Assembly (NCBI GenBank): GCA_963702095.1
Contig: OY969706.1
Location: forward strand, 1,088,001-1,152,000
DNA length: 64,000 nt
Direction of reading: 5' to 3'
Source: Candidatus Bathyarchaeota archaeon
Lineage (GTDB): Archaea > Thermoproteota > Bathyarchaeia > Bathyarchaeales > Bathycorpusculaceae
Shown one piece after another: positions 946-26,581 of the stretch. The notes beneath the pieces were generated by a model that saw only the letters and a list, made by a program, of their open reading frames with translations, had not been told where the DNA came from and ran no database searches. Numbering within the stretch: position 1 is the stretch's first letter; each line of letters opens with the position of its first letter. The position numbers and the translations under genes were made by a program.

Positions 946-2391
946 CTATTTTTCCATGCCTTTATTCCAGAAAAGGTAAACTTTTATTTGGGATAACATT
1001 CCAAGTATTTTAATGAGTTTAGTGAGCTGTTTAGAATTGGCGTTTTGAATGTATTTTACGTAATCGGAAGTTTTTCCAAAAGGTTGATGTCGGCTAGCCG
1101 TTACCTCTTTTTTGAAGCGTGGATGCTTGTCTTTTGTGAAAGCAATTTTTAGCGCATTTATTTGTTCACTAGTTGAACTCCCGATTTTGGCTGCGACATA
1201 GCGTTCGCTGCACAGAAGCCGTAAATCAAAACCAAATTTGGTCAGAGTATTTGTGACTTCTTTAACGCTTTCGATATGCTGCTGTTCGGCAATTTTTTTC
1301 ATACCCGCTTTCTCTGCGAAGGGCGAATATTTTGGCATAACAGCAATCAATTCAACATAAGGAGTACCCACCATCTGTAGTGTATCATGAATTAGCTTAG
1401 CACCTAATCCTATTGTTCGATATTTTGGGTGGATAACCACTCGATTAATAATGCTTAGTTGTTTGTTCATTTCTTGAATAGTCATTCTCGGCAGCACTAT
1501 TCGTCTTCCATAGCATGCTGGTGGTGGGTAACTGTAGACTATGACGCCGCAGAGTTCATCGCCTCTTACTAGGCGGAAGATTTTTCGTGGAACCGCAACC
1601 TTGTGCCCTCGGTAGTGGAAACTGCTTAGTTTTTGCCAGTCTTCTCTGGTGCCTTCTTCAATTCTCATTTCACGGATTAGGCTGCATTCGGTTGCTGGAG
1701 TGTTTGGGTAGTAGTTGATTTTGATTTCTTCTCCGAATCGTTTGCGGACCAATACGCTGGGTTTGAGGTCTTCGGCTAGGTCGCTGTGGGTTGTTGCTGC
1801 TATGACTGCTTTGCCTTGTTGGCGGGCGATTTTCTGCAGGTTGAAAGCGATGATTTTGGCGGTGTCTCGGTCTAAGCATGCGGCGAATTCATCCATAAGC
1901 CACCATTGCTTGCCGCTCTCGATTAGTTTGGCGATTCGGTAACGATAACGTTGACCATCGCTCAATTGGCTGTAAGTGCGCAGAAAAAGGAAAGCATCGT
2001 TTAGGCCGACTTTGCTTAACAGCTCTAAACCTTCTTCGACTGTGGCTCCGATAGTCTCAATCAATGGCTTCTCAGCGTCCACTGCCACATCTGACAGGTC
2101 GATGGCTTCCTCGTCTAAATCCGCCTTAATTGCTCGCAACAGTACGCTTTTGCCGCTGCCGCTATCCCCAGTAATATAAACGATGTCTTGAGGTCCGATC
2201 TTCAATTCAGCATCAAGAACCTTAAAGCGCTGGGTATCGTCGATGCCTAATCCGAAGGCTTCAGCCACAACCAAGCTGCGAGGTGTCGGCTTAGTATGGG
2301 TTTCATAGCTGATATTGTATGTGAACTTGCCTTCCGTCCGGTCGTAGATTCGTCGGAATTGCCTTATGCGAATGTCTCTTTGTCGTCTCAT
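946..2391 (-). CDS. ABC-type ATPase fused to a GNAT-family acyltransferase
   Basis: Walker A GDSGSGKS, signature LSDGQ, Walker B WLMDEF, H-loop ATTH; C-terminal GNAT motif RVVIHPKYRTIGLG. Confidence 0.85.
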   Translation of the reverse strand: MRRQRDIRIRQFRRIYDRTEGKFTYNISYETHTKPTPRSLVVAEAFGLGIDDTQRFKVLDAELKIGPQDIVYITGDSGSGKSVLLRAIKADLDEEAIDLSDVAVDAEKPLIETIGATVEEGLELLSKVGLNDAFLFLRTYSQLSDGQRYRYRIAKLIESGKQWWLMDEFAACLDRDTAKIIAFNLQKIARQQGKAVIAATTHSDLAEDLKPSVLVRKRFGEEIKINYYPNTPATECSLIREMRIEEGTREDWQKLSSFHYRGHKVAVPRKIFRLVRGDELCGVIVYSYPPPACYGRRIVLPRMTIQEMNKQLSIINRVVIHPKYRTIGLGAKLIHDTLQMVGTPYVELIAVMPKYSPFAEKAGMKKIAEQQHIESVKEVTNTLTKFGFDLRLLCSERYVAAKIGSSTSEQINALKIAFTKDKHPRFKKEVTASRHQPFGKTSDYVKYIQNANSKQLTKLIKILGMLSQIKVYLFWNKGMEK

Positions 2392-2398
2392 TTCTTGG

Positions 2399-3847
2399 TC
2401 ACCTTGGAATAACTGTTAAGAATGGTTCGGGTTCCATCTGCACGGTTGCAAACACGGCTAGCGCCGTACTCCAAAACACGTCATCATGGGTGCCGTTTGG
2501 ATGCGAGTATCCTATGGCGCCGTCCTTGCGTAGGTCATAGCGTTCCACGTTTAACTCGGTGCAGATGTCACCTCTGTATGGTCGCTCCCAATTGAGCAGT
2601 GGATAGTAGAATTGCTTGTTCATCATGCGCTGCTTTAGCAGGCTTGCCATCTCGCTCTTTCTTGGCACGCTAAAGTTGACGCCTTCGGCATTCTCTATGC
2701 CCGCAGTCTCCATGTCAGTGATGATGCTTGGGCCTTCCCGTGTAAAGTCAACCCTGATCTTCTGGAAACCGCCCCATCTATCCTGCAGCGCCTTTAGATA
2801 ACCGAGAACTTGAGCGTAGAGTGTGGGCTGCTGGAAAATCTTTAGGTGCCGAAGGAACAGCTTATCGTTTAGGCGCTCAACCACCGAAAGCACACAGTAA
2901 TCCCTTGTCTGCGCCAAGTCAAGTCCAGCAAAAAAGTCCCCTTCACAGCTAGCTTCAGGATTGAACTCTTGCAAATCCTCGCCGCAATTCTTCACTGTGC
3001 CCACGCAGGCAACAATTAAACTCTGAGCCAGCCAAACATCTTCATCCTCTGCCCACTCAGCTTCCATTTCCCGACGCCAACGTTGCGGGTCATCCCCGAA
3101 CTGACGCTTAATCTTCTCAACAATAGCAGGCTTAAGCGGACCATTAGGTTCAAGCGCATCAGTCCACCGAACATGTGACCGTGCAAAATCAGAGTAGTCT
3201 TTGTGGTTGCACATTTTCCAAAACAGCGAATCCGTATTCCAAGGCGTTGACGTGGCGATTAGTTTGCCGTTGGTTGTTCCAAGCGTAAACAGTATGGCAT
3301 CATAGAGCTCCTCGTCGTTAGGAACGAAATTGGCTTCTTCGATCCAGATTACTTTAAAGGTTGGGCCTCTGATTGTGTCGGGGTTGTTGGGGAAGGCTTC
3401 AATCATGCTGCCATTTGGCAACGTAATCCTTGTTTTTTGTATGTGCAGGCCTGGCTGCTGTGGAAGCTTTCGGCAAAAACCGCCCATGCGTCGTATGTTT
3501 AGTTTGGTTTGGCGCCAGCTTGGACCCACAATCGCGACATAGCTGTCAGGATGTTCCCAGGCGTATTTAAGAAGCAAAGCTGAAACCGAGAAGCTTTTCC
3601 CGGTTTGGCGTGCCCAGCGTACAGCGGTGAATTGGTTTTTCTCAAATTTCTCGGCTAACTCAAGCTGGTATTTGAAGGGTGTAAAGCCAAAAATCTGCTC
3701 AAAAAAGCCCTTAACATCCCTCTTTAAGGCATCGACATGGTTTTCGCTGGATTTTTCAACCGCTGCCACGTCCTCCCAGAGCTTGTTGTACTCCGAGAAG
3801 AGCTGATTAGGACGAAGTGCCCTGGGACTTTTTCCTAAGCGCCTCAT
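2399..3847 (-). CDS. terL: Terminase large subunit
   Basis: PFKYQ adenine motif, Walker A ARQTGKS, Walker B VIWIEEA, coupling motif STP, RNase H-like AGLDLA and terminal HDD. Confidence 0.95.
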   Translation of the reverse strand: MRRLGKSPRALRPNQLFSEYNKLWEDVAAVEKSSENHVDALKRDVKGFFEQIFGFTPFKYQLELAEKFEKNQFTAVRWARQTGKSFSVSALLLKYAWEHPDSYVAIVGPSWRQTKLNIRRMGGFCRKLPQQPGLHIQKTRITLPNGSMIEAFPNNPDTIRGPTFKVIWIEEANFVPNDEELYDAILFTLGTTNGKLIATSTPWNTDSLFWKMCNHKDYSDFARSHVRWTDALEPNGPLKPAIVEKIKRQFGDDPQRWRREMEAEWAEDEDVWLAQSLIVACVGTVKNCGEDLQEFNPEASCEGDFFAGLDLAQTRDYCVLSVVERLNDKLFLRHLKIFQQPTLYAQVLGYLKALQDRWGGFQKIRVDFTREGPSIITDMETAGIENAEGVNFSVPRKSEMASLLKQRMMNKQFYYPLLNWERPYRGDICTELNVERYDLRKDGAIGYSHPNGTHDDVFWSTALAVFATVQMEPEPFLTVIPR

Positions 3848-4259
3848 ATTTTGGCCTCAACTCCATTAATTCCACTTCAATTTTGCGGTAGCGCACGTAT
3901 TCGGCAAAACGCTCCTGATACACCTTCGCCCCAGCTATGATTCCACGCAAACGCAAAACCTCAGACTTATCTATGCCAGGCTCTTGGAGCGCCTCTATCG
4001 CGGCGGCTAACTTCTTTAGCATCGTCTCAACACTTGGAAGCTCGTTTGGCAAGTCTTTAAAAGAAGAAGAAGCGCAGATTTTTCCACCTTCTTCTTCTCT
4101 TGAAATTAGTCCTAAGTCTAGGAGCTTTTGGTAGATGGCGTTTTGGCTATACTTGAATTCTAAACTAAAGGCTAAAACGGCATAATCAGTGATGCCTGAA
4201 GTGTACCAGTCTTTGAGCTTTTTCTCGTCATCTACTGGCCAAGGTTTGCCTTTAGTCAT
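3807..4259 (-). CDS. Probable terminase small subunit
   Basis: 150 aa with an N-terminal HTH-like segment and helical C-terminus; overlaps the terL start. Confidence 0.5.
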   Translation of the reverse strand: MTKGKPWPVDDEKKLKDWYTSGITDYAVLAFSLEFKYSQNAIYQKLLDLGLISREEEGGKICASSSFKDLPNELPSVETMLKKLAAAIEALQEPGIDKSEVLRLRGIIAGAKVYQERFAEYVRYRKIEVELMELRPKYEALRKKSQGTSS

Positions 4260-4497
4260 GTTTTCTGCCCCACAAACAACCCAATCACGGTGCCGCTTAA
4301 TCCTGTGATGGATGCGAAAATCTCAGCGTTCCAAGTGTGCAAAATGGCTAAGTGGGCTATCTCAAGAGCAGACATAAACGCCGTCATGCATATGGCGAAT
4401 TTTACGCCCAACACAAGCTTAGCAGTAGGTTCCTCAACGATGAGGCGGCTCTCTCAAAGCGTCTTCTAGTCAAGGCACGTTTAATGGGGTCTGCCAT
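4256..4497 (-). CDS. Small two-TM membrane protein (holin-like); one frameshift near 4450; absent from the ORF track
   Basis: Manual translation MADPIKRALTRRRFER/RLIVEEPTAKLVLGVKFAICMTAFMSALEIAHLAILHTWNAEIFASITGLSGTVIGLFVGQKT; ATGA overlap with the next gene. Confidence 0.5.
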
Positions 4498-4903
4498 CGA
4501 CACTCAACCTCTGCTGAAACATTGTCATCCGAAAAGTTCTTGGGCGGTTCATCGTTCGGTGCCCGCCCATCATAAAACTGTTAATGAGCTTGCTAGCCGA
4601 TTCGCTGGGAATATGCTCTTTTACCAAAACTTGGACGCCTAAAGCCCAACCGATAGGTATTGCGGTGTAGTCCAGATCGAAGAGACCGTCGGCATAGCGA
4701 AAACTGTTCTGTGCAATTACAATATGTTTTATTTTACCTATCAGCCCAACGTATATGCCCCAGCTTTTCACCGGTACATCTATAGTTAAGCCTGAACCGG
4801 AGCTTTTGCCAACCGAGGCATCACACCAATCTACAGCGATTAAATCGCCCGGCTTAACGTTCTCTATGAGCTTTAGCACTTGCTTACTCAACAGGACACC
4901 CAT
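4481..4903 (-). CDS. Hypothetical viral protein (beta-rich, VDWCDAS motif)
   Basis: 140-aa ORF heading the packaging operon and overlapping the next gene. Confidence 0.6.
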   Translation of the reverse strand: MGVLLSKQVLKLIENVKPGDLIAVDWCDASVGKSSGSGLTIDVPVKSWGIYVGLIGKIKHIVIAQNSFRYADGLFDLDYTAIPIGWALGVQVLVKEHIPSESASKLINSFMMGGHRTMNRPRTFRMTMFQQRLSVDGRPH

Positions 4904-5052
4904 AACCTACGGGGGAAAACATTGTAAAAAGCAATCTTGCGAAAAAACAACCTCTAAAAAATAAGGGATAAGAAAAACCAGTTAATGATTAGCTCTCAGC
5001 GTAGAATAAAAATGTTAATTTTAAATAGGTAAAGCGCAGATACAAAAATCCG

Positions 5053-6129
5053 GTGGGTGAGTTGGAGGAAAAACAAAAAAAATTTAATTATATCTGGATT
5101 GTTCGATGCGCTGGAAATGATGCAAATAGAAACGTTACCTGTAACATGTTAGAGAAAGCACCTTCAACTAGACTCATTAAGCCATTGGTGGAAGTAATTG
5201 ACCCGAAGATACTTCACAGGTTATCTAGACTCTTACGGGCTAAATATGGGTCTATAATGGTCGAATTACCCGCTTACTTTCTTGAAGTACGAAATAAGTA
5301 TTCAAGTTCTATTGAAAATCTAATCGCCCAATACCCCGACCAAGCGACCTTTTATGTTAAACACAAATCACTATTGGATACTCCCGTAATTTCGGCTCAA
5401 CATATTGGAAACCGTGATTACGATGAGGAGACTGAAACTCTTAAAAAAGTCAAAGATGACTTTAAGTCAGTAGCTGTACGAGTAAGAGTTCCCTATTTTG
5501 AACTAGCTACTGCAACGAGAATTCTTAACTCATATAAATCGTTAGTCAGCAAGATGGAAGAAAACGATAGCCTATTGATGGATGTTTTTAATTTATCGGG
5601 TTATGAAACTCAAATAAACTCAAACGTTGAGTTGATGTCTAAAATTGCTGCTGAAAGAACCGCCAAAACATTTGTTCTAAATGCCTTTGAACCAATTGAT
5701 AACGGTCATAATTTTGGGCCACTACTTAGCTTTAGAAATAATCTTAGTGGATTTGGCGATTTTGCGACAGAAAGGCGATTCCCACCAGAAGGAGGACGAC
5801 AACCGGAAAAGAAAGTTGGAAAATACTACTTTTGGGATCGGTTTTATCTAAAAGACTTCAAGAGAGTGGACTATGATATTGTTGCTGCATCGTTGAAGGC
5901 TACAGCGTTTTGGAGCAATCACGATAAACACGTTTCAAGCTGTAATGCATGTTATGCCCTGCAACATAATGACTACAACAGAAGCCCAACTTATTGGAAG
6001 GCTTTTAGAATGATTCATTACTTGCATTCAATTACTAATGAGACAGCCAAACATTTTAGCTCTGTTACATCGGACCAAGACCTTGACCCAGACGGTTTCG
6101 ATATTTTATTTAACGTCGAAGAGATTTAA
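5053..6129 (+). CDS. Beta-protein / sce7725-like protein
   Basis: GFGDFA..EGG and WKAFRMIHYL motifs; paired with an sce7726-like gene; AT-rich and opposite strand to the viral core. Confidence 0.6.
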   Translation: MGELEEKQKKFNYIWIVRCAGNDANRNVTCNMLEKAPSTRLIKPLVEVIDPKILHRLSRLLRAKYGSIMVELPAYFLEVRNKYSSSIENLIAQYPDQATFYVKHKSLLDTPVISAQHIGNRDYDEETETLKKVKDDFKSVAVRVRVPYFELATATRILNSYKSLVSKMEENDSLLMDVFNLSGYETQINSNVELMSKIAAERTAKTFVLNAFEPIDNGHNFGPLLSFRNNLSGFGDFATERRFPPEGGRQPEKKVGKYYFWDRFYLKDFKRVDYDIVAASLKATAFWSNHDKHVSSCNACYALQHNDYNRSPTYWKAFRMIHYLHSITNETAKHFSSVTSDQDLDPDGFDILFNVEEI

Positions 6130-6937
6130 TGTGTTGAATGTCATGCGAACAAAACAAGATTACCTGTCCGAAATACCATTTGAGTTCTTGATCGGTTTTT
6201 CTAAAGAAACGGGTCTAATTCGCGATAATGCTTGTTTTACAAAAAAGGATTTTATTCATCGATTGATACCTAACCTAACTCTTTCCGATTGCCAACAACT
6301 CAATGAGGAGTCAAAAGAAGGGCATTGTTACAAGTCAAGTGTTAGCCGGTATCTAAATGAATTCCCGACAGGTAATATTGTCAGTAAGAATTTTGTTGAA
6401 CATTTAGGCAAATTTGAAAGTCAACTTGGTTCAATTTTTTATGAATTTCCCATTACACATACCAGGGTTGATATTCTCAGACTTTCAGGAGAATTTTACG
6501 CGTATGAAGTCAAGTCTGTACGCGATAAGCTTGACCGATTAGTTTACCAAATTCCTGCCCTCCAAAAATACTTTGATTATGTAACTGTTGTTATTCCAAC
6601 CGAAAACGAAAAAAGCGTTAGGTGCTATCTTCAAAAAAACATTGGAATAACCAGTTTTCAAGTAAAAGACCGATTAATGGTCTTTGATTCCAAAAGGAAA
6701 GCAAAAAAAAGCGTGCTGTTGGATTCTATTGCCCAACTAGAAATATTGCGCTTGGACGAACTTAGGGATATTTACCGCTGTGGTAAGCTTAAACCAACAA
6801 GGAAGGAAGCCATTGAAGGAATAATGAGAAACCTGAACACAAAGGAGATTCACACTGTTTTTCTGTCAAAGCTTAAGGATAGAGAAAGAAAAACGCAGAC
6901 GAACCATTCAAATCAAAAAAGACTGGGTCATTTTTAG
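6038..6937 (+). CDS. sce7726-like PD-(D/E)XK nuclease (true start probably 6131 or 6143)
   Basis: E..RVD..YEVKSVRDKLDRLVYQ..Y.KYFDYVTVV motif. Confidence 0.75.
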   Translation: MRQPNILALLHRTKTLTQTVSIFYLTSKRFNVLNVMRTKQDYLSEIPFEFLIGFSKETGLIRDNACFTKKDFIHRLIPNLTLSDCQQLNEESKEGHCYKSSVSRYLNEFPTGNIVSKNFVEHLGKFESQLGSIFYEFPITHTRVDILRLSGEFYAYEVKSVRDKLDRLVYQIPALQKYFDYVTVVIPTENEKSVRCYLQKNIGITSFQVKDRLMVFDSKRKAKKSVLLDSIAQLEILRLDELRDIYRCGKLKPTRKEAIEGIMRNLNTKEIHTVFLSKLKDRERKTQTNHSNQKRLGHF

Positions 6938-7231
6938 TAACACTTCTTATCAAATTATCTCTTGGGTTATACCACATTAATTCGAAAATCACCTACTCTT
7001 CCAACACGTGGAAAACCATAATTGGTTGCTGCCACTAAACTGTTCTACGGTTCTGCGTTTTCTGGGCTAAGTAAAATACGTTCAATCGGTATCTCCTGCA
7101 AATTAATGGTAGCCATACTGTCCAGCAACCTTATCGTGTAGTTGCGGGAAATTAATACAATACTTGCTAAAAGAAAAAACAACTTTAAAGCACTAACAAA
7201 TAGTCATTAAAAACGCTGCGACAGTTTCTTT

Positions 7232-9441
7232 TTATTTTGTTACTTTTAATCTGTTAATTCTATTGACTTTCGATTTTAGTGCGTACACGTAATCCGCTAA
7301 CAAAACGGCTTCCCTGCCAAGCTCCAACATTATCTCCAATTCTTGAGTTTGACCGTCAACAAGATATTCAGCGCTGATAACTCGGAAGTCTGCGTCTACG
7401 TTCTCGTTTGGCAACTCAACATGTACTTTGTCGCCTGCAAGGATTAAAGTCGTGCCGTAGTCGATAACTGAACTTTTAACAGTTAGGTGCTCAGCTGGGT
7501 CCTTCATATAGTCAAGGATTGCTTGGGCTCTTAGGTTACATTCGTTGTCGCTGTATAATTCGTCGTCTGTGTCAACGTATTCTCGGAGTCCGTAGAGCGC
7601 TTGACTAGGATAATCTTCAACAACCGCACAGTAACGCATACCGCCGAAGTATAGACCATCTATCCAGTAATCGCCGTTTCCAGGGCTTAAATCCTGATGA
7701 ATATTTATTGAAACTTGAACCCTTACAATTTTGTTCCAATGGAACCCTGATTGACCATAACCGGGAAGCCATTCATCCGCATACTTGGAGCCGACTTTAA
7801 GCGAGACCTGGTTCCATTGAGCGTCATGCGCGACACCGGGTTTAGCAACCATTTGCTTTCCAGTATCGTCGATTAAGCTAATTGCCACCCCTGAACCTTC
7901 AAACGTGCTTGGAATATAGAGGCATAAATTAAGCGTGGGAAATAACTCGCAATTTGGTTCCATCCCTGCTTTGAAGGTGAATTTTGCCATTCCATACCAA
8001 TCGTTCACAAGGTGAACTTTGACGCTGCTTGTTCCGAAGGCTTTGTTTGTACTATCCTGTGCGACGTTTCCTGAGCCGCCCGAGCCTCCAGCGAAAGTCC
8101 AATCACCGTAGGGTGGATGCAGTATCTCTGTGAAGCCGTCTTTATCGAGAGGATAGCTTTTGTCCGACGCGCCCCAAATGGTGATTTTGTTTCGCACTGC
8201 AGAGATGTCTTTGCTGTAGGTGCTTTCCTCGATGCTGTCGGTTAAGTCGGCAACTACGCTTCGGCTGTTTTTGCGGAAAAACTCAAATCGCCCATCTGGA
8301 GCAACACGGAAATCAAAACCGATTACCCCGTTGTAGTCCGCTGACTGTGCAATATACTGCAGTATGTCCCAAACTGGCGTATCGTTGTAATCAAGCTCTG
8401 TATAGGTTGTGCTTGTATTCTCGACGAGTTCATAGCCATTGCGTGTATGGCTGATTCCCACGTAATTGTCCAGTAGGTCCTTGACTATGGTTTCGCCTTT
8501 GCAGTTGAGGTATTTTTTGGTGACTGTTCGGCGAAATAGCCGCTCTCCCCAGCATCTACCGCTTATGAGGGCATAGGTTTCTGTGCCTGTGGCTTGGTAC
8601 TCTATGTGCTCAACTTTGAGCGAAATCATGGGTAGCACGTTTGGGTTATAGGGGATGCGGCAAATTCCGATTCCTCCAGTTGCTCCCAGTTGGATGGGTA
8701 ACCAGCCGCTTTGGCTGTATTTTTTGCCCCAATTCTGGAGTTTAACTTCAAAGCTGCTTACCTCTTTTGTGGCGCCCAAATGAACCGTACATTCGATTAT
8801 GTCGGTCTCTGGAACGAAGATATTGCCAAAAACAACTACTGGTTTTGGAACGTTGATTACTTGCTCGGTGCTAGTTGGGGGCAACCCGACGTAGTGGAAA
8901 TTGGCCGTAATGGATGCATCATTGCCAGGATACCAAACGTATGGATTGTCATTGTTTCCGTCGCCCCAATCATCAAAGGTGTAGCCTGATTGTGGAAAAG
9001 CCTCTAGGCTGATTTGGTCTTCGGGATTAAAATGGAGTGTTGCTGGAAAGCTGGCAAAGACTACCGAGGTTTGCTGCCCAACGTTTATGGCTATTATGTG
9101 GTTGCATTCTTGGCTTAAGGCGGTGATTGTTAGGGTTTTGGTGCCTGTCCCGCCTTCTTGGCCTTGCCCTTCGTATAGGTTAAGTACAAGGATTATTGGT
9201 TGGGGTGTGTCCCAAGCTGCAAGTTGAGAAGCGGTGTTAGTGGCTGTCCAGTAGCCGGCAAAGATTTCATACCATTGGCTGCCAAGGAAAGGCGTCGGAA
9301 ACGCCAAATCTCCTGTAACGTAATCGCCGTTTCCATCGGTCAGCTGCCTTCTTCGACGGCAACGTAATCAACGACGGCAACGTTAGCGCCCACAATTGGA
9401 TTCCCATGTTGGTCCTGAACATGCACAGTAAAAGACGTCAA
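7232..9441 (-). CDS. Tail-tip/hub protein with N-terminal carboxypeptidase-regulatory-like and InlB B-repeat-like domains and an internal CBM-like insert; frameshift near 9345
   Basis: Follows the TMP. Upstream TTG at 9441 overlaps the TMP stop and encodes VHVQDQHGNPIVGANV..TDGNG. PQSGYTFDDWGDG..ITANF repeat; hub-like VRNKITIWG and SQALYGLREY. Confidence 0.7.
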
Positions 9442-10118
9442 GGCGACTCAAGACCTCTGCGAAGCGATGCGTTGCCTCCAATGTTGCTGCTCATGGAGCT
9501 TACGGATTCTTCGCCGGCTCTGGTTATGCTTCTAACGTGCTGGGGCGTTGAAATATTGGCGGCGTTAAAGGTCTTAACGCTACTCGTCGCCGAATCCATG
9601 CTTTTAGAAAAAGCAAACATCGCAACTGCAGCGGCAGCAATGACAGCGATCCCAACTCCGGTTAATGCGAAAAAGGTTGCATAACTAATGTTTAGTGCAT
9701 TTTGAGCAGCGGTTGAAATCCAAGCGGCAGCGCTATAGACCGCGTGAGCTGTAGCAGAAATTCCCAAGCGAACAGCTTGAAGCGTCTGTGATATGATGCC
9801 TGTCTGAGTAGCTGTGTTTTGAGCCACTTGAGCCGTCATGGCGCCAGTAGTTGAAACCGCCAAAGTGCTTTGAACACCAGCGCCTGCAGCAACGGCGGCG
9901 TTTTGGGCTGTCTGGGTTGCAGTGGCAGTCATCAGAATAGCATGCAACGAAGTCATGACGCGAATAACAGAGAAGATTTGCATGACACTTCTGCCAGTCT
10001 GTGAGTCTAGGGCGCCAAAAGAGACCCCTAAATTGATTACATCAGAGGAGATGGAGCGGAAAACGGATGAGGCTCGGTTCTCAGCACGAACGGCTATGCT
10101 GATGTCGCGCATGCTCAT
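9438..10118 (-). CDS. Very short tape measure protein (226 aa)
   Basis: Position after the chaperone and gp10-like genes; N-terminal ISIAVRAENRAS, Ala/Thr-rich helices, hydrophobic TGVGIAVIAAAAVA segment. Confidence 0.7.
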   Translation of the reverse strand: MSMRDISIAVRAENRASSVFRSISSDVINLGVSFGALDSQTGRSVMQIFSVIRVMTSLHAILMTATATQTAQNAAVAAGAGVQSTLAVSTTGAMTAQVAQNTATQTGIISQTLQAVRLGISATAHAVYSAAAWISTAAQNALNISYATFFALTGVGIAVIAAAAVAMFAFSKSMDSATSSVKTFNAANISTPQHVRSITRAGEESVSSMSSNIGGNASLRRGLESP

Positions 10119-10450: not shown

Positions 10451-10547
10451 TAACCCCTCGACATCGCAGTCAATTTCTACCGTTTTCTTGTTTCCCTCTC
10501 TACTTTGCGCTTTTCTTCTTCGACCATAGCGTCCATTTCGTTGAGTA

Positions 10548-17742: not shown

Positions 17743-17808
17743 TTTTACATCAGCCCAAACTTTCTTGAAAACAAAAAAGGAGGTTGTTAAGTGAGAGGCA
17801 GTTTTGCT

Positions 17809-18789: not shown

Positions 18790-19221
18790 TTAGGCGCCTG
18801 CCTCTATGAAGATTAAATCGCCGTCTGCCTCTGCCTTGTTTACGGTAGTTCCTAATTTGCGACTCATGTAGATAGTGTAAGTTGCTGCACCGCCTTCGTT
18901 TACTTCTTGATCGTTTAGTTCAGTTACTTTTCCGTTGCCGCCGTTACGGACTGCAACCCCTGCGGCAGTGGTTGCGCCATTAGCAACCACTTTGACCCTG
19001 CCTTTTCTTAGGATGGGAACCTGCTCGCTATCCGCAGCGGCTTTAACAGCAATGCCAAAGCCATACCAAGTGGTAGGAGTAGCCGTCACTTTGCCATCAT
19101 TTGTTAATTCGACAGGTGACCCCTTTGTAACTGCGCCATTGGCTTCATAACTCTCAATGACTGCATTTGGATCGTCAGTTTCTCCAGCAGACATCCAAGG
19201 CTTACCTGTTTTATCAGCCAT
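18790..19221 (-). CDS. Capsid decoration/cement protein (DUF2190-like)
   Basis: Gly/Ala-rich, ANGAVTKGSPV..FGIAVKAA; between protease and MCP. Confidence 0.7.
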   Translation of the reverse strand: MADKTGKPWMSAGETDDPNAVIESYEANGAVTKGSPVELTNDGKVTATPTTWYGFGIAVKAAADSEQVPILRKGRVKVVANGATTAAGVAVRNGGNGKVTELNDQEVNEGGAATYTIYMSRKLGTTVNKAEADGDLIFIEAGA

Positions 19222-19298
19222 CCAAAATAATCTCCAAAAGTTTTAACGTTCAGCCAAGGTCGTTCTTGGCCTACTAGCCCCACAAAAGTGAGCATAAA

Positions 19299-20216
19299 CT
19301 AAGGTACACTCCCCAAGCGTTCTTTCGCCCTAAAAATCTCCGAGCGAATTCCCTGACAGATACGTTGCATGCCCAAGCTTGACCGTTGTACCATCTGAGA
19401 AGGCAACAACCGCTCAAGGATAGCGATATGCTCAGAAAGAGGAATCATAACAGGAGGGTTCGTTAGCAATCCTCCACCGGGCAACTTCTTTCGCAGTTCC
19501 TCGATGGTTTTGTTAGCAGTAGACAGCTGGTTTTTTGCCTCATCGCAGGTATTCTCAGCGGTCTTGCATTTGCTCTCTGTGTCAGATAATTTTGTGTTAG
19601 CTTCAAAAATCTGTAACTTGAGGTTCTCAATTGTTTCCGTGTTCTGTCCGTTTACTTTTGCAGCGACCTTTTCAGCGATTAAATTCAAGTCTTTCTCTGC
19701 CAATTGTACAGGATTCTTACCCGTTGCAAGATGCTCTAGTACCTGAACGTTAGTTTCAGGCACACCTGGAACGGCAACAAGCGATAACTCAGGATTGAAC
19801 AAGCCGTGCGGAACTTTGGCGTCCACTACATCAAGCGTGTTGTAGTCAGCGCCGACACTAACGTGCTGAACGAGTCCATTTCTAATTTTATCAGCGGTGG
19901 CAGCGTCATAAATCTCAGCCTCATAATTTAGACATCGAGCAGCGGCATCGTAGTTGCACTTGGTTACTTTTCCAGCAGCCGAATCAACAGCCACATGCTC
20001 GATATAGACAGGGGCATCAACCAGCTTGTCAGCAAAAGCTCGGAGTTCTTCAGGCGTATAAACGTTAAAGTTCCTAGACATTCCAGCGGCCAATGCAACT
20101 CCGCCGATTCGTAATGGCTTCTCTGCTACTGCTTCAAGGACTTTGAAGGGAAGAACCGAAGATACATGCTCCCGAACATGCTTACACTCTTTACAGCCAG
20201 AGCCACACTGAGACAT
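19299..20216 (-). CDS. Prohead protease with a C-terminal scaffold-like coiled coil
   Basis: SRNFNVY..VYIEH, HVSVG, ELSLVAVPG, then a coiled coil. Confidence 0.85.
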   Translation of the reverse strand: MSQCGSGCKECKHVREHVSSVLPFKVLEAVAEKPLRIGGVALAAGMSRNFNVYTPEELRAFADKLVDAPVYIEHVAVDSAAGKVTKCNYDAAARCLNYEAEIYDAATADKIRNGLVQHVSVGADYNTLDVVDAKVPHGLFNPELSLVAVPGVPETNVQVLEHLATGKNPVQLAEKDLNLIAEKVAAKVNGQNTETIENLKLQIFEANTKLSDTESKCKTAENTCDEAKNQLSTANKTIEELRKKLPGGGLLTNPPVMIPLSEHIAILERLLPSQMVQRSSLGMQRICQGIRSEIFRAKERLGSVP

Positions 20217-20593: not shown

Positions 20594-21734
20594 ATGAAGT
20601 CAAAAAAACAAGTGATTTACGGGATAATAGTAGCATTCATTGTTCCTACCTTACTGGTTTTTGTCTCATGGGCTATAGGAGCGGTTCATGATGTGATGTT
20701 TGTTATTGATGAAGTTATTGCCGCTACGGCAGCATCGTTGGTGTTTGCGGGACTTGTTATATGTGTTCATGGTGTGATAGGAAAAGAAGGAATTATAGAA
20801 GCAAGAGACATATTGAAACTCCCTAAAGCTAAACAAGCTAGTTGGATACAAAGACATAGAATTTTTGTTAAGAAAGATAAGAAGGCAGACTTTTGGTTAA
20901 TGATTTTTCTACTAGCGGTTTTCGGTTCTATCGCTATCCTGATTGCTACAACTTTTCCAGTAGTGCCCTCTTCAACAAACGCAGTTCTCATATCTAATGT
21001 TACTAAAGGAACCATGATTGCTTTTGGTGCAGGAATCCTGATCACTTGTATACTGCTTTCAGGGAATGAATTATACAACATATGGGATTCCAAACAAAAA
21101 ATCATTTACGAACAAAAAAAGGCTCTTTTAACCATAATTACTGACTTTGATAATTCATTTCGAGAATTAAAGCAAACTACTCAACAGAAAACGAAGGAAA
21201 GACTACTAGATGACTTTCAAAATAATCTTAGAAATCTATGTTACGATTACCCGTGGGATGAAAAAAAACGAGACAGAATAGTAGATGTATTAAACTACAT
21301 ACCGTCTAGACTCGCAAACGACCCTAACGTCGGGTCTTATCTGCTCTTTCTTGGATTTATAATTCATCGAGACAGCAAGTATACTATAAAACTAGTAAAA
21401 GAGAAGTTCTCAGTAGAATTGGAGAACTTGTATAATGACCAACGATTTGAAACTAACCCAAAACCTATACTTTTACTTCAAGAACTAAACGAGCATTCAG
21501 AAGTATATATGATGAAACTGATTGACGAGACAAGTTCAATTTCTAAATGGAGCGACCAGCGATTTCAAGCTTTAGGCAGTAACATTGAACTATGGGAACT
21601 AAAGACCAAAAACATAGAAGCCCATTCTAGAAGTTTCAGATTATATACTCAGAAAAATGGATGATGCAGCACGAAGTAATGATGATACAGTTTTCAAAAG
21701 ACTTGATTTCCTTAAAGCAGTAACAAAGAGGTAA
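20594..21734 (+). CDS. Four-TM membrane protein with a helical cytoplasmic domain (cargo); probable frameshift near 21622, ORF track ends at 21664
   Basis: Hydrophobic segments; the shifted frame continues ILEVSDYILRKMDD..KR to a stop at 21734. Confidence 0.55.
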
Positions 21735-21756
21735 AGAAGAATCAGAGGTTTTATCG

Positions 21757-22257
21757 TTGCAGAAACCGTTGCACATTGAACTCATAGCTACAGATGGTGC
21801 AGTACAAAAAAGGGTACTGTGGGCACATTCCGCACCTAACGGTGTATATTGTGGTATGTGTAGCAACGGTCAAGATTTTCATGTTACTTACCATGCGGAC
21901 GGGAATGTGTTTAATAATTTTGGCGGCAAAACAACAAAGACTTTTACAGGAAAATCCTTTAAAGAGTTTACAGGGTATCAACAACTATTATGTTCTGGCG
22001 TTACCAATAACTTGTCTCATGGGTTCTATCCTTCATATACGCTAAAGAAACTAGACGCTATTGTAAACATTGATGTACGAAATTACAAAAAAGGCGCTGG
22101 TTGCATGTTGTTTATGGTAGAGCCAACTTTTACTGCACTATCAGAATTAGTTAGGCATTTTCAAACTGGGAACCAACCACATATAACGGAAGTTCACTCA
22201 TTTATGGAATGTAATCCTTGGTTAGCTATTTTTGTATATGGCGATGTTTACGGTTAG
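21757..22257 (+). CDS. Hypothetical protein (HVTYHADG motif)
   Basis: 166-aa ORF in the AT-rich cargo block. Confidence 0.55.
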   Translation: MQKPLHIELIATDGAVQKRVLWAHSAPNGVYCGMCSNGQDFHVTYHADGNVFNNFGGKTTKTFTGKSFKEFTGYQQLLCSGVTNNLSHGFYPSYTLKKLDAIVNIDVRNYKKGAGCMLFMVEPTFTALSELVRHFQTGNQPHITEVHSFMECNPWLAIFVYGDVYG

Positions 22258-22391
22258 ATTTACAGGGTGTCCTTCTCCTCAAAGGCATCAAATTCTTTAA
22301 TTCTAATAAAAAACGACATCGTTCGAATCGGGTAAGACAACCACCAAGGCGCAGAGAAATGTTATATTCTTAGCACTTGCAATAGAACACT

Positions 22392-23072
22392 ATGGGTAAA
22401 AAGAGTAGGCTAGACGCTTTAGATAATATTACTCTTGCATTGTTTGGCGCTTCATTGGCTATCCCAGCGTTGATAGGCTACTATGGATTAGATGTCCGAT
22501 TAATGGTAATTCCCAGTTTATGCTATGGCTTTTGGATTCTAATCATTGGCTACGCCAAACCTAAAGTGTCATTTGATGGTCAGCCTGACCGTGCGCTGGT
22601 TGAGCGTATCCGTGGCTGGGCATATGTTTTGGGCTTTCCTGTGTGTTCGGTAACGAATTTCATCTTCATCTTTGTGCTTCCGCATACACTCGACTACTTC
22701 CTTTTTGGAATCGTAACTGGAAGCGCTGCATTGTTCCTATGTGTTAGCATTGTCCAAGCAATCTTCAGAAAAGATATCGCTAACATGGACGTTGAGCAAC
22801 ACGGCTTGCTTTTAAGCATGCTGAGTTGGGTTGGAGCATCAATCATTTTCGTTTCTGTAGGGTTACCCTATCCTACGATTATGACAACCTGGACGAGTTA
22901 CCCTCTTGCGATGGTAGTAGCTTATTCGGTGACAGCTGTGATTATGTTTTGTTTCAGCTTTGACAGATATAAGAAGTCATCTAAGCTGTGTAAGCAACTT
23001 GCGGATTCAATGAGGGAAAGCAGATTGTCCAAGAAGAAGCAAAAGACGGAATCAGTCGAGAAAAACATGTGA
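22392..23072 (+). CDS. Multi-pass membrane protein
   Basis: About six hydrophobic helices. Confidence 0.65.
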   Translation: MGKKSRLDALDNITLALFGASLAIPALIGYYGLDVRLMVIPSLCYGFWILIIGYAKPKVSFDGQPDRALVERIRGWAYVLGFPVCSVTNFIFIFVLPHTLDYFLFGIVTGSAALFLCVSIVQAIFRKDIANMDVEQHGLLLSMLSWVGASIIFVSVGLPYPTIMTTWTSYPLAMVVAYSVTAVIMFCFSFDRYKKSSKLCKQLADSMRESRLSKKKQKTESVEKNM

Positions 23073-23130
23073 AAAAGTACACAGGATATTCACTTTGAAT
23101 AAAGGAATATCACTTTCTTCTCTTATTATT

Positions 23131-23805
23131 CTAAACCCAGTTTTGTTCTTTTTCGGGGTGCGCTAAAACCCAATTATATTTGTCGATGAATGTCGTGGCT
23201 GTTTTAGGCGCATATTTCTGCTCTAACTGCCTTAATGTCGGTTGTAGTTGTCTCATTCTCTCTTGCATCTCCACCAAGAATAAGAAGTAATCGTTTCCAT
23301 CACCATTTTTGTTAAACTTTTTCCTGATGTCTACATCCCACATAATAAAAAAATTGGGGCAGCAAAGATGTAATATTTTAGAAGCTGTTGTTGGACCCGC
23401 ACGTTTAGGTTTTCCTTTATTGCTACTAAAGCTCGTCATTGCCATATCGTTGAAAAGCTCTGTTATTTGAGTTTTGAGAGCTTTCAGATTATCAGCATTC
23501 TCTATGTTTAAGGTTCTAAAGGGCGCAAGCTTTGCACTAAATTGAGCATCTTTTAGTTTTTCATAAACTGCCTCTAATCCTGAATAACCAAGATGCCTCT
23601 GCATTACTCCCCATACTAGAAGGAAAGCAACCAAAATTCTTTCTCTATAGAGGTCGTTGAGGTCTTTCAGGTCAATTTTACTGAATTCAGCAATGCATGC
23701 TTGGTAAATTAGGTCAGTAATTCCCCATCGAGCTTCCACGTCTTCGATAACCTTAGAGAACTCTTCTTCTTTTATACTGTTATCCGCCAGCTTAGCAACC
23801 TCCAA
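23131..23805 (-). CDS. HhH-GPD-superfamily DNA glycosylase-like protein
   Basis: AGPTTASKILHLCCPNFFIMWD helix-hairpin-helix with a downstream Asp; FLLVWG and IDKYNW. Confidence 0.55.
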   Translation of the reverse strand: MEVAKLADNSIKEEEFSKVIEDVEARWGITDLIYQACIAEFSKIDLKDLNDLYRERILVAFLLVWGVMQRHLGYSGLEAVYEKLKDAQFSAKLAPFRTLNIENADNLKALKTQITELFNDMAMTSFSSNKGKPKRAGPTTASKILHLCCPNFFIMWDVDIRKKFNKNGDGNDYFLFLVEMQERMRQLQPTLRQLEQKYAPKTATTFIDKYNWVLAHPEKEQNWV

Positions 23806-23808
23806 TTA

Positions 23809-24315
23809 TTATGTATGAAGCGTAAATCTGATCAACCAATCAATTACCTGAAAAATAGCAATTACCGCCAACGATGCAACCGCAACGAAAAAGGCATTTC
23901 GTAATTCTTTTTCTTCAGGGCTTTTTGAGCGCATTGCAAACAATGGCTGGATCAATGGCTGATTACCATAGATAGGAAATGGATATAGTTTATTACCTCC
24001 TTCATTGAGGACTTCTACTTGCCCGCCCTTAGTAGCCACAGCACCAACTACCGTAAACCAAGTGTAGCCTGACATAAGAGGGGCTTGGCTGTATGGAATT
24101 GTTGCTTCAGACTTTGGGGCTAAATTTTGAATGTTTAATGGCTGATACACATTTTGGTTAAGTTGACTCCACGAGAGCATAATTTGAATAAAACCATCAA
24201 ATGTTGCGGAGCCAAGATTTTTCACTTTGTAGGCATACTTAGCTGTTTTGCCGACGACTGCTTCTTTGGGTGCTTGAACAACAACCTCGAGCTTATACGT
24301 TGCGTTTGCTGTCAT
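23809..24315 (-). CDS. Ig-like (CARDB-like) domain with a C-terminal TM anchor
   Basis: YKVKNLGS..NLAPKSEAT; C-terminal hydrophobic helix. Confidence 0.55.
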   Translation of the reverse strand: MTANATYKLEVVVQAPKEAVVGKTAKYAYKVKNLGSATFDGFIQIMLSWSQLNQNVYQPLNIQNLAPKSEATIPYSQAPLMSGYTWFTVVGAVATKGGQVEVLNEGGNKLYPFPIYGNQPLIQPLFAMRSKSPEEKELRNAFFVAVASLAVIAIFQVIDWLIRFTLHT

Positions 24316-24385: not shown

Positions 24386-24598
24386 CTATTTGGTACTTCT
24401 TGTATTCAAGTTGTTCGAAGTATTAAGAACGTCAATAAATTCTAAATCAGCCCTTGCACGCTCGATTTTCTTTAAAGCATTCCGTCTAGAACGAGTTACA
24501 TTGGGTGTTTCTACTTTCAGCTTATGTGCAATTCGATAGTCGCTTAGGCCCTCACTATGCAACCGTAGAATCTGCCGTTCACGCTCAGTCAACGCCAT
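24386..24598 (-). CDS. LuxR/Tfx-like HTH protein
   Basis: LTERERQILRLHSEGLSDYRIAHKL..RRNALKKI. Confidence 0.8.
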   Translation of the reverse strand: MALTERERQILRLHSEGLSDYRIAHKLKVETPNVTRSRRNALKKIERARADLEFIDVLNTSNNLNTRSTK

Positions 24599-24600
24599 AT

Positions 24601-25167
24601 CTAATTCGTTCCATCAGGCTCTTCGGAGTAATCATTCAGAACCACGCCTTGGGCTAGCAAGTCCTTCTCTGATGCTTTGTAGGCGTCTACGCCGAAGCTT
24701 GTCATAGCCCAGCACCAACCCCGCCGCTCAACAACCGCCGAGTCCAGCTCCTGAGATAACCGTTTATTCATGCGAATAATCCGTCGAGTCACTTGATAAC
24801 GAGCAACCTTGAACTCAGCCAATTTAGCAGCTATGTCTTTAGGCAGTAATCCGGGAGCGCCTGCTTCAAACAGCAACTGAAGAATAGCCTTGTCAACCTC
24901 GTCACAGCAAGCGGCTTCTTCAATTAGTGACTTCTCAAAATACAAAGAATCCTTTAAGCCAGCAAAGATAACCTTAAGCAAGAGTTTTATTTCGGCGACG
25001 TCACGGTCGAGTTTCTTGTCCTTGGCAAACAGGTACTTGAGTTTTCCAACTTTGTCAGCTTGGCTACGCTTCCTTTTATCTGCTTTTTGGGCTGAAAATG
25101 TCGTGTTTTGAACAGGGTCATCGCTGGCTTCCATGTCAAAAGGCACACTCCACGGTTTTCGCTCCAT
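24601..25167 (-). CDS. Winged-helix protein with an N-terminal coiled coil
   Basis: DKAILQLL..GLLPKDIAAKL..VERRGWCWAMTSFG. Confidence 0.65.
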   Translation of the reverse strand: MERKPWSVPFDMEASDDPVQNTTFSAQKADKRKRSQADKVGKLKYLFAKDKKLDRDVAEIKLLLKVIFAGLKDSLYFEKSLIEEAACCDEVDKAILQLLFEAGAPGLLPKDIAAKLAEFKVARYQVTRRIIRMNKRLSQELDSAVVERRGWCWAMTSFGVDAYKASEKDLLAQGVVLNDYSEEPDGTN

Positions 25168-25316: not shown

Positions 25317-26273
25317 CTAAGAAACATAGCTTTTACCTCCCTCTCCCCCGGTCTTTGTTACCTCTTGGGGAGCTCCTTCTAAATTTCCTACAAGCCGCCC
25401 CAAAGCATCCGCAACCTTAGCCAAGTCGCAACCCATCTTCTCCAACTTTGCAAGACTACCTGAAATCCGCTCCAAATCACCAAGAGCAGTTTCCACTTGA
25501 CCTTCCAATTTCTTAACCCGCTCAGGCATCAACAAATACTCGACGGCTGCGTCACGGCCAAGATGGTCCAGTTCTCCTTCGTCTTCGCCGGGGCTGTCAT
25601 CAATCAACCGCTTTGGAGTGCTTACCTCAAAATAGCGGTTTAACAGGTTGGCTACTGGGTCGTCGATGCCAAGTTCATGGCGGTTGTTGATTGTTCCCTG
25701 CCCTAAAACGCAGCCATACTTGCTCATTAGGCCCTGAGCGACGCGGTCAGCCAAGTTCTTAGCTAAAGTCACAAGCTCCCCGGGACTTCGACCATAGAAA
25801 GTCTCTACATGGACAATCCAAGACGTCGTCGTATGCCTCACCTTAACACCCTGCTCCAGCCCCAAAAGCGCGGTCCAATTCTGCATCTCAATCCGCCGAA
25901 AATCGCCCGAAGGATAAACCCCCTCACGTAACACTGGATACTTGAAAAAACACCGATGCAACCGAAACACGCCGCTGCTGAAGAGGACTCCCTCACAGGA
26001 TATGAGAAAGTTTTGACCTCGCTCTGTTAGCTCAAAATCGACGAAGTTGCTGCGCTTTAATCTGCGGATTAAGCCTGCCTTTTCAAGCTTTTTAACATAG
26101 TAAGCGACATGCTGGCGCTTCCATCCACGGACGCGCCCTATTTTGGCTGGGTACATTTTGACTTCTATGCCTTTGAGTATGGGTATGACACGGGCGCGAA
26201 CGGTATTGAAGTCAAATTTGACTTTTGACTTTGAAAGCGCAAAATTTTGACTTCTATCTGGTTGGGCAGTCAA
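25317..26273 (-). CDS. wHTH-containing protein, candidate replication or regulatory protein of the element
   Basis: N-terminal MarR-like wHTH (YYVKKLEKAGLI..ELTERG); central RLH and IDDSPG..GELD motifs; C-terminal coiled coil. Confidence 0.55.
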   Translation of the reverse strand: MTAQPDRSQNFALSKSKVKFDFNTVRARVIPILKGIEVKMYPAKIGRVRGWKRQHVAYYVKKLEKAGLIRRLKRSNFVDFELTERGQNFLISCEGVLFSSGVFRLHRCFFKYPVLREGVYPSGDFRRIEMQNWTALLGLEQGVKVRHTTTSWIVHVETFYGRSPGELVTLAKNLADRVAQGLMSKYGCVLGQGTINNRHELGIDDPVANLLNRYFEVSTPKRLIDDSPGEDEGELDHLGRDAAVEYLLMPERVKKLEGQVETALGDLERISGSLAKLEKMGCDLAKVADALGRLVGNLEGAPQEVTKTGGEGGKSYVS

Positions 26274-26278
26274 AAGCT

Positions 26279-26398
26279 TTAGCGCCTCCTGGATTCCTTA
26301 AAGTTGTCGCAGGCGTCAGAGGAAGCCACACGGCCTATTGATCGTCTGCCCCTCATGGACGGTTCAGAGCAGCGCCCGCACCAAAAAACGCAGTCCAT
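26279..26398 (-). CDS. Small Cys-rich peptide (39 aa)
   Basis: MDCVFWCGRC..ASSDACDNFK, directly upstream of 26273. Confidence 0.3.
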   Translation of the reverse strand: MDCVFWCGRCSEPSMRGRRSIGRVASSDACDNFKESRRR

Positions 26399-26503
26399 AC
26401 AATAGTGAACTGTCGCGCTATGCGTAGAAGCAGTGTAGAGCGTACGCTGAGGGAAAAAAGAAGAGAGAAAAGAAAAAAGGCTAGTACTCTTTCGTGTAAA
26501 TGT

Positions 26504-26581
26504 TGGCGGGTCCGACGGGAGTTGAACCCGCGACCCTCGGATTAAAAGTCCGATGCTCTAGCCTGACTGAGCTACGGACCC
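26504..26581 (-). tRNA. tRNA-Lys(TTT), intronless, CCA encoded
   Basis: GGGTCCG..CGGACCC acceptor stem, anticodon arm TCGGA-CTTTTAA-TCCGA, GGTTCAACTCC T-arm, ends GCCA. Confidence 0.97.

Follow-up and report, generated by a model that had tools for sequence, protein, structure and literature searches.

Does a compact cluster of viral head and tail genes beside a tRNA gene represent a provirus, a gene transfer agent (GTA) maintained by its host, or one part of a larger element? The question is raised by a stretch of 64,000 nucleotides from a Candidatus Bathyarchaeota archaeon (assembly GCA_963702095.1; the whole stretch is hereafter called the window), in which such a cluster lies next to a tRNA-Lys(UUU) gene. 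The window corresponds to positions 1088001-1152000 of contig C1, the single 2.94-Mb contig of the source genome (G000). Positions refer to the window unless given as genome positions. We conclude, with a probability of roughly 85%, that the cluster holds the morphogenesis and packaging genes of a temperate archaeal virus with a non-contractile tail (Caudoviricetes), integrated as a provirus of 47,978 bp in the 3' end of tRNA-Lys(UUU).

The integration site is the following feature, which is also the sole match in an Rfam scan of the window:

26504-26581, minus strand: tRNA-Lys(UUU), found by ARAGORN and Rfam; its 3'-terminal 15 nt (26504-26518) are the core of the left attachment site (attL).

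The 15-mer TGGCGGGTCCGACGG, the reverse complement of the tRNA-Lys 3' end including CCA, is located at position 26504, and a repeat search of the source genome returns an exact second copy at genome position 1066541, 21.4 kb to the left of the window start. A tyrosine-integrase open reading frame (ORF) on the minus strand ends at genome position 1066601, 46 bp from this distal 15-bp repeat, and integrase and att repeat together span genome positions 1066541-1067758 (window -21459 to -20242). The integrase is one of seven PF00589 matches in a profile scan of the genome (at 1066877-1067380, minus strand; 30-32 bits, above the cut-off), none of which lies inside the window. It is XerA-like (1.9e-9), its frame is intact over 507 codons (a protein of about 480 aa), and its HSLR, MGH and Y motifs are of the R/K/HxxR/H/Y type. 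The 13-nt core of the att repeat has three copies in the whole 2.94-Mb genome, with both strands searched and one orientation throughout: at tRNA-Lys, at genome position 1066543 and at genome position 1026595. Both copies outside the tRNA sit just past the 3' end of an integrase gene. Inside the 48-kb segment, including the boundary between the large terminase (TerL) gene and the cargo, no att-like copy is present at up to two mismatches to the 13-nt core. The repeat pair, the integrase and the lack of an internal att copy therefore define a provirus that extends over genome positions 1066541-1114518. The head-tail cluster is the tRNA-proximal half of this provirus and not a self-contained element.

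These boundaries bear on a first-pass annotation of the window, made from its sequence and ORFs. Its placement of a provirus at tRNA-Lys is borne out by the repeat and the integrase, and it was right to see no integrase within the window. Its left limit at position 946 has to be given up, since the ORF at that limit (946-2391) is part of the cargo and another 22 kb of the element lie to its left. The description as minimal fits the structural module of about 18 kb; it does not fit the whole element of 48 kb with its cargo.

The closest relative genome (G007, about 85% nucleotide identity) carries no element at this tRNA-Lys and hence provides an empty site. On its contig C4, the host flank that matches genome positions 1008740-1024067 sits 2 kb from the tRNA-Lys, so that about 90 kb are inserted in the source genome, namely the provirus together with a second island. 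This second integrase-bearing island of about 40 kb (genome 1026595-1066541) lies in tandem to the left of the provirus and shares 13 of the 15 nt of the att core. Its cargo includes DISARM-like genes (two SNF2 helicases, an Eco57I-type methylase, a DEAD helicase with an MZB domain and a UvrD-like helicase) as well as a 1976-aa ORF that fuses glycosyltransferase, methyltransferase and UDP-glucose dehydrogenase, and a SLOG protein. No capsid gene is found in the annotation of the island.

The morphogenesis genes run on the minus strand over positions 2399-20216, according to the ORF listing and profile scans of 35 ORFs. Across the entire provirus the order is regulators, S78-like protease, cement protein, HK97 major capsid protein (MCP), portal, adaptor, a barrel protein resembling glycoside hydrolase family 98 (GH98), tube, chaperone, gp10, short tape-measure protein (TMP), hub, small terminase (TerS), TerL, cargo, a small ORF and the integrase. 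The genes from protease to TerL are given below in this order, together with the features interspersed among them; L018 and L019 (with L021, used later) are IMG/VR predicted-virus contigs, L022 is a further related locus, and G007:C12 denotes a provirus on another contig of the closest relative.

19299-20216, minus strand: prohead protease of 305 aa with a C-terminal coiled-coil/scaffold-like part (ESM-Atlas Peptidase_S78 clusters at 0.94, 174 shared features).
18790-19221, minus strand: cement/decoration (or scaffold-like) protein of 143 aa; matches are weak (Phage_cement, E 0.003; phrog_673, 7.5e-6).
17809-18789, minus strand: HK97-fold MCP of 326 aa (phrog_267, 1.1e-12).
17491-17742, minus strand: small winged helix-turn-helix (wHTH) protein of 83 aa between MCP and portal (HTH_45, E 0.003), kept in L018, L022 and G007:C12.
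16250-17509, minus strand: portal of 419 aa, assigned through matches of its homologues and ESM-Atlas portal clusters.
16047-16253, minus strand: 68-aa protein 3' of the portal, kept in L018 and G007:C12.
14732-15880, minus strand: secreted Trp/Tyr/Cys-rich protein of 382 aa with an N-terminal signal-like segment, in a variable slot outside the conserved set.
14089-14598, plus strand: inverted, truncated paralogue of the TIM-barrel gene, carrying the family motifs.
13270-13596, minus strand: head-tail adaptor of 108 aa, Mu gp36-like (Phage_Mu_Gp36, 2.1e-5; 25.1 bits against a cut-off of 24.7).
11915-13270, minus strand: GH98-like (beta/alpha)8-barrel protein of 451 aa (AlphaFold2 (AF2), Foldseek and VIA).
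11007-11867, minus strand: tail tube of 286 aa (Phage_tube_2, 5e-10; phrog_290).
10548-11006, minus strand: candidate tail assembly chaperone of 152 aa, by position only.
10115-10450, minus strand: HK97 gp10-like tail completion/Neck1 protein (phrog_5, 7.8e-14; weak HK97-gp10_like match).
9438-10118, minus strand: short tape-measure-like protein of 226 aa, by composition and position (Ala/Thr/Gln-rich, hydrophobic, pI 10.8).
7232-9307, minus strand: tail hub/tip protein of 691 aa (YQBQ-like, 9e-6; Flg_new_2; phrog_400 tail protein; VgrG-related).
4481-4903, minus strand: conserved 140-aa protein (o140), encoded between terS and the tail-tip gene; identity in L019 and G007:C12 is 85-89%.
3807-4259, minus strand: candidate TerS of 150 aa, by position only; it overlaps the TerL start and is kept in L019 and G007:C12.
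2399-3847, minus strand: TerL of 482 aa (Terminase_6N, 7.4e-15; phrog_2, 1.2e-37).

The MCP has 910 homologues in a collection of 5.8 billion proteins, many of which are named HK97 family phage major capsid protein (PF25209/PF05065), and several are named from metagenome-assembled genomes (MAGs) of Bathyarchaeia. The same protein finds no match in 50,697 GenBank phage records, and TerL has distant relatives only among GenBank phages, about 30% identical or less among the matches listed; judged by these sequence comparisons, the lineage is far from cultured viruses. For the portal, the query itself has neither a Pfam nor a PHROG match and PDB sequence searches found nothing. The assignment comes from its homologues, of which four of 24 match Portal_Mu (best E 0.003) and three of 24 match Phage_portal (best E 0.0006), all weakly, and from the nearest named ESM-Atlas clusters, which are portal clusters at 0.97. 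An AF2 model of the portal built from 24 sequences is poor, with a predicted local distance difference test score (pLDDT) of 48.7, too low for a fold search. The protease has in addition a weak Phage_scaffold match over residues 190-244. A tail sheath family is not matched by any of the 35 ORFs scanned, and the sole sheath-sized gene beside the tube is the 451-aa TIM barrel. A contractile-tailed (myovirus-type) virus is rejected, there being no sheath gene upstream of the tube.

The 451-aa protein has 59 homologues among 1.84 billion representative proteins. In its AF2 model (40-sequence alignment), residues 1-280 form a (beta/alpha)8 barrel with pLDDT above 90, and the C-terminal 170 residues are without confident prediction. 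Compared with solved structures, the barrel is closest to GH98 catalytic modules (VIA Z 21.2, 20.2 and 17.9, versus about 16 for other glycosidase barrels), in agreement with Foldseek (top E 4e-8). Against PDB sequences, a profile search gives matches only at chance level (E 0.09-0.19) and phmmer gives none. Because the closest structures are GH98 modules, the gene is neither an adaptor-terminator fusion nor a tail sheath; both candidates were rejected on the TIM-barrel fold. The protein is probably an envelope-glycan hydrolase of the tail module. The inverted ORF at 14089-14598 is 36-39% identical to the homologues of the 451-aa gene in L018, G007:C12 and the provirus of a further genome, G012, and is probably a remnant.

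Temperate siphoviruses of the HK97/lambda type possess a tyrosine integrase and a short core that equals a tRNA 3' end, occupy tRNA genes in tandem and carry moron or defence cargo beside att. The provirus shares the integrase, the tRNA-end core, the tandem occupancy and the cargo beside att with them, and differs in the portal gene following the MCP gene, in the terminase genes following the tail genes and in the glycoside-hydrolase-like barrel between adaptor and tube. The canonical gene order, found also in the gene transfer agent RcGTA, is terS-terL-portal-protease-MCP.

The same gene order has been published. PMC11705971 (Microbiol Spectr 2024) describes 38 archaeal head-tailed proviruses, eight of them from Bathyarchaeia, defined by MCP, integrase, direct repeat and tRNA. 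Two of these, BATPV1 (JAAKEZ010000002_pro, 33.4 kb, positions 240214-273571) and BATPV2 (DTQN01000007_pro, 38.4 kb, positions 49-38445), have a Bathyarchaeia host and integrase, direct repeat and tRNA integration in common with the element described here. In the gene table of that paper, the head part of BATPV1 consists of a MarR regulator (gene 3), a head maturation protease, a 143-aa capsid-fibre/scaffold protein, the MCP, the portal (gene 11) and a small ORF. The tabulated tail part consists of a head-tail adaptor, two enzyme genes, Phage_tube_2, a chaperone, gp10/Neck1, a 194-aa TMP and a Mu gpP-like protein, and is followed by small ORFs, a 156-aa protein, a 482-aa TerL, an ABC ATPase 8 nt later, Piwi, defence and toxin-antitoxin genes and a XerA-type recombinase; the gene at the terS place is annotated there as a transcriptional regulator. 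For BATPV2 the table gives tube, gp10, TMP, tail fibre, TerL, ABC ATPase and a terminal XerC.

The correspondence with the BATPV1 table is gene for gene and includes the portal after the MCP, the late TerS/TerL, the ABC ATPase, the cargo and the terminal integrase, as well as a Piwi/pAgo (prokaryotic Argonaute) gene and a PIN toxin pair (PMC11705971). Differences concern size, enzymes and cargo. The two published elements measure 33-38 kb as against 48 kb here, the present one being larger because its cargo amounts to about 22 kb; compared with the tabulated genes of BATPV1/2, its cargo is distinguished by a Hachiman-like helicase, two ABC transporter sets and a DUF2797-pAgo block. Ahead of the tube, BATPV1 is listed with two enzyme genes (GlcNAc 2-epimerase-like and phosphodiesterase), in contrast to one GH98-like barrel and the inverted fragment here. 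Two links to these proviruses are indirect: P0093, an MCP with 69% identity, is named from an A05DMB-2 MAG, and L040, with 86% MCP identity, lies on a record that PMC11705971 lists among its MCP contigs. By gene-table comparison, the provirus belongs to the BATPV-type group published in 2024, of which it is a new, well-bounded member. The head-tail set and its order had been recognised in the first-pass annotation and are real as listed, apart from the 451-aa gene, which had been taken for the adaptor-terminator fusion. The order was also rightly called rearranged in the sense that it is non-canonical; given that the same order is tabulated for BATPV1 and BATPV2, the proposed new siphovirus lineage is not supported.

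Other head-tailed viruses of Bathyarchaeia differ in gene order or content. The 'Fuxiviridae' and 'Kunpengviridae' (PMC10848311, ISME Commun 2024) are likewise described as Caudoviricetes of Bathyarchaeia with HK97 MCP, portal, TerL and tube. A tyrosine integrase is reported for Kunpengvirus, and Fuxivirus is also small (32 kb). In the latter, the MCP (gene 34) comes after the neighbouring genes for TerL (gene 27) and portal (gene 28), which is the canonical order; Kunpengvirus is described as encoding PolB and MCM, neither of which is recognised here. The host orders given for the two families, with which the comparison is by description only, also differ (Bifangarchaeales and Jinwuousiales), and in the tables of PMC10848311 none of four IMG/VR ids related to this element appears.

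Relatives in other genomes confirm the layout of the element and document its mobility. The G007:C12 provirus encodes tail proteins 89-99% identical to those described here (most 96-99%), and its MarR-like end lies 618 bp from a tRNA-Asn; in the source genome, the 3' 16-mer of tRNA-Asn is single-copy and no provirus genes map there. None of the conserved structural ORFs is shortened, and their identity to the counterparts in G007:C12 and L018 is 77-99%. The contigs L018, L019 and L021 share the gene order, and L019 includes o140, terS and TerL after the tail tip. In G014, which like G012 belongs to the genus of the source genome, the order is tRNA-Lys, head and tail genes, a homologue of the small ORF, an integrase (56% identical) and the repeat; this repeat matches 14 bp of the tRNA-Lys 3' end and sits 30 bp past int, giving an element of 39.5 kb. 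The G012 provirus (37.7 kb) is bounded by a 16-bp repeat of a tRNA-Asn 3' end and carries an integrase 72% identical at one end. The cargo, 22 kb here, measures about 6 kb in G012 and about 13 kb in G014. TerL of the present provirus has no tblastn match at 1e-5 in the G012 or G014 proviruses. A fifth genome, G005, contains an integrase homologue convergent with tRNA-Lys and homologues of the PIN and TrmB genes, with no head genes in the 20 kb examined. In G012 (contig C10) and G005 (contig C25), the integrase is located beside the tRNA and convergent with it; in the source genome and G014 it is found at the tRNA-distal end.

Within the genus, the MCP is present in 39 of 101 genomes (27 of the 62 of high quality), with up to seven matches per genome, some fragmented or with stops; at the level of the order, it is present in 45 of 151 genomes (34 of 105 of high quality) and in 25 of the 63 genera sampled, so the BATPV-like group is common. 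The named MCP relatives from GTDB genomes are all Candidatus Bathyarchaeia, Bathyarchaeota or uncultured archaeon. The source genome itself contains decayed relatives of the element. A deletion derivative at genome 650496-664575 consists of regulators, protease, a truncated cement gene, a small ORF and an integrase beside a tRNA-like sequence; regulators only remain at 229185-233115; TerL, terS and a frameshifted o140 are found at 1210468-1212944; and a further TerL lies at 2735005-2736447. Frameshifted tail-tip fragments occur elsewhere in the genome, with 1968714-1970287 among the sites of decayed relatives, and two extra TerL genes are full length (88% and 66% identical).

Several observations weigh against an intact temperate virus of the BATPV group. 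No polymerase, primase, MCM or any other replication gene is recognised in the provirus by profile scans, as the first-pass annotation had already stated for polymerase, primase and MCM in the window. Among the window ORFs, profile scans recognise no separate head-closure or tail-terminator gene. The interval between portal and adaptor holds the inverted TIM-barrel fragment and the non-conserved secreted protein, which has no family match and no counterpart in the related loci L018-L023, G007:C12, G012 and G014; the presence of both marks the interval as a variable, rearranged slot, from which connector genes have possibly been lost. The identities of portal, protease, TMP, TerS and chaperone are weak or positional in basis, the gene order that places the element in the BATPV-like group is compared with BATPV1/2 through gene tables and not through sequence, and the orientation of the att core relative to int is opposite in G012 and G005, which is unexplained. 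Among public sequencing runs, none contains as much as half of the words from the attL junction (best 0.20). Part of this would be accounted for by a cryptic, non-inducible provirus that is kept for cargo beneficial to the host (pAgo, Hachiman-like helicase, transporters) and whose structural genes are intact only through recent integration. The unrecognised replication module and head-closure/terminator gene, the inverted fragment with the non-conserved insert in the connector region, the several clearly decayed relatives in the same genome and the second integrase-bearing island in tandem at the same att all point in this direction. We nevertheless regard such a cryptic state as rather unlikely: the structural ORFs are full length and highly similar to their relatives, no damage is seen in the integrase frame or in either att core, and the tabulated connector set of BATPV1 is equally sparse, which makes sparse connectors a family trait and not a sign of decay.

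It is considerably less probable that the 48 kb combine two elements, an integrase-less head-tail cluster (about 900-26500) and a separate integrative defence island to which the integrase and the distal att would belong. A shift in GC content and strand use at about position 900, a cargo far bigger than in G012 or G014 and the integrase with PIN/TrmB homologues beside tRNA-Lys in G005 would fit such a composite; they are outweighed by the missing internal att copy, by the integrase at the regulator-distal end with cargo before it in G012, G014 and, as tabulated, BATPV1 and BATPV2, by the conservation of the small ORF beside int in G012 and G014, and by the ABC ATPase 8 nt after TerL, which the BATPV1 table shows as well. 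A domesticated GTA-like cluster, maintained by the host and packaging host DNA, had also been considered in the first-pass annotation, and we now hold it to be highly improbable. RcGTA has a compact HK97-type head and a short non-contractile tail module with a short TMP, and is inherited vertically at a single locus; to our knowledge, it has no integrase or att, and its cluster contains no replicase. The compact structural set, the short TMP, the unrecognised replicase and an MCP 65-91% identical in most matches listed would fit a GTA, and the table of PMC11705971 gives an HHpred match of the BATPV1 portal to the RcGTA portal structure, which reflects a shared fold only. Here, however, the left flank holds an integrase and att repeats, the closest relative lacks the element at this tRNA-Lys, integration sites vary among relatives between tRNA-Lys and tRNA-Asn, and the MCP is restricted to a minority of genus genomes, often in several or decayed copies. 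This patchy, multi-copy occurrence at several sites, with decayed copies, therefore argues for a mobile virus that repeatedly integrates and decays and not for a vertically inherited GTA. By the criteria that the first-pass annotation itself had set, the integrase and the att repeat refute the GTA, so that this idea can be dropped, and no new category is opened.

As a temperate virus, the element would function as follows. The integrase would recombine the tRNA 3' end with the 15-bp core of attP, a site that on the circular genome would fall between the MarR-like gene and int, and the small ORF upstream of int may serve as a directionality factor. Since no replicase is recognised, the excised genome would presumably be copied by host enzymes. 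TerS and TerL would fill an HK97-type capsid that the protease matures and the cement protein stabilises. A short tail of about 30-35 nm (if 1.5 A is assumed per TMP residue), with a single hub protein and the putative glycanase, would deliver the DNA, and the cargo would defend the lysogen. More tentatively, this order of Bathyarchaeia may have BATPV-like proviruses as its main temperate viruses and as carriers of exchangeable defence islands, with one slot between TerL and the integrase. In this possible but doubtful scenario, integration modules would be swapped (tRNA-Lys here versus tRNA-Asn in G007, the att core being oriented either way), and the ABC-ATPase/GNAT and the GH98-like barrel would represent new virion or take-over functions.

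Sediments harbour Bathyarchaeia in abundance; these archaea are known largely from MAGs, and their viruses are known from sequence alone. A single-contig genome with both provirus ends defined to the base offers a clean reference for the BATPV-like group: the att core measures 15 bp, the integrase is intact, the structural module is complete and the cargo is of pAgo/Hachiman type. Both the GH98-like enzyme of the tail module and the ABC ATPase linked to TerL give testable starting points for work on the host envelope and on conflict between virus and host; if the barrel is indeed a virion function, it would point to an unknown glycan layer on Bathyarchaeia cells. Also of interest are the tandem occupancy of tRNA-Lys with the DISARM-like island and the way in which structural modules that are nearly identical appear to have exchanged their integration specificity.

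The remaining features of the provirus within the window are regulators, accessory slots and the start of the cargo:

25317-26273, minus strand: MarR-like wHTH regulator of 318 aa, the first gene after attL; the MarR match is weak, and the protein is 96-98% identical in L018 and G007:C12.
24386-25167, minus strand: conserved 188-aa protein and a GerE/LuxR-type HTH protein of 70 aa (GerE, 7.7e-9), with homologues in L018, G007:C12, G012 and G014.
20594-24315, no single strand: variable accessory block with a CARDB-domain protein, two small ORFs and membrane-like proteins on the plus strand (ORFs and profiles).
5053-6937, plus strand: two accessory genes on the opposite strand, a 358-aa protein and an sce7726-family/PADLOC 'cll' protein (NF033832, 4e-28; PDLC02989, 2e-16).
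946-2391, minus strand: ABC-type ATPase with a C-terminal GNAT-like part, 481 aa (ABC_tran, 3e-10; phrog_293, 5e-35; phrog_886, 4e-21).
1-887, plus strand: 3' part of a cargo ORF that starts left of the window, the last gene of the pAgo/helicase defence block (ORF listing).

The 188-aa protein and the GerE/LuxR-type protein are probably lysogeny or early regulators. Two slots are variable: the block at 20594-24315 is unmatched in L018 and G007:C12, which have other DNA at that place, and the slot at 5053-6937 is occupied by different genes in G007:C12. The ABC-ATPase/GNAT gene begins 8 nt after TerL and has no membrane partner; by its sequence and position it is a conserved cargo or late gene of this provirus group.

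The interval between TerL and the integrase contains, besides the ABC-ATPase/GNAT gene, a block of ResIII helicase, pAgo (PADLOC, 5e-38) and DUF2797 protein, a HamB-like/Hel308-like (Hachiman-like) helicase (3e-43), a PIN-wHTH pair, two ABC transporter sets with TetR and PadR regulators, and three small ORFs. The small conserved ORF that adjoins int has its homologues in G012 and G014. Two defence-related arrangements within the cargo (both in genome 1079740-1084683) are of separate interest. In the Hachiman-type region, which lies there with the pAgo set, the HamB-like helicase is preceded by a 236-aa ORF that may be HamA. The long pAgo is preceded by the DUF2797 protein and followed by two small ORFs and the ResIII helicase, an arrangement that may constitute a new pAgo partner set.

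Three further observations concern the window to the right of the provirus. An 889-aa protein (47853-50522, plus strand) has an N-terminal tubulin-like GTPase domain (Tubulin_2, 2e-10; Tubulin, 6e-6); the large ORFs that flank its gene, at 50729-52234 and 52297-54702, have no family match. A CdvA-like protein of 546 aa (27441-29081, plus strand) has a long Pro-rich, extensin-like repeat region, and the number of repeats varies among relatives, judged from multiple short matches in G010, G001 and G012. Just past the CdvA gene, a segment of about 180 bp (29159-29343), without a match in Rfam, recurs at no fewer than eight, that is at least eight, other places in the source genome (76-86% identity) and in relatives, and may be a dispersed repeat, a miniature inverted-repeat transposable element (MITE) or a conserved small gene.

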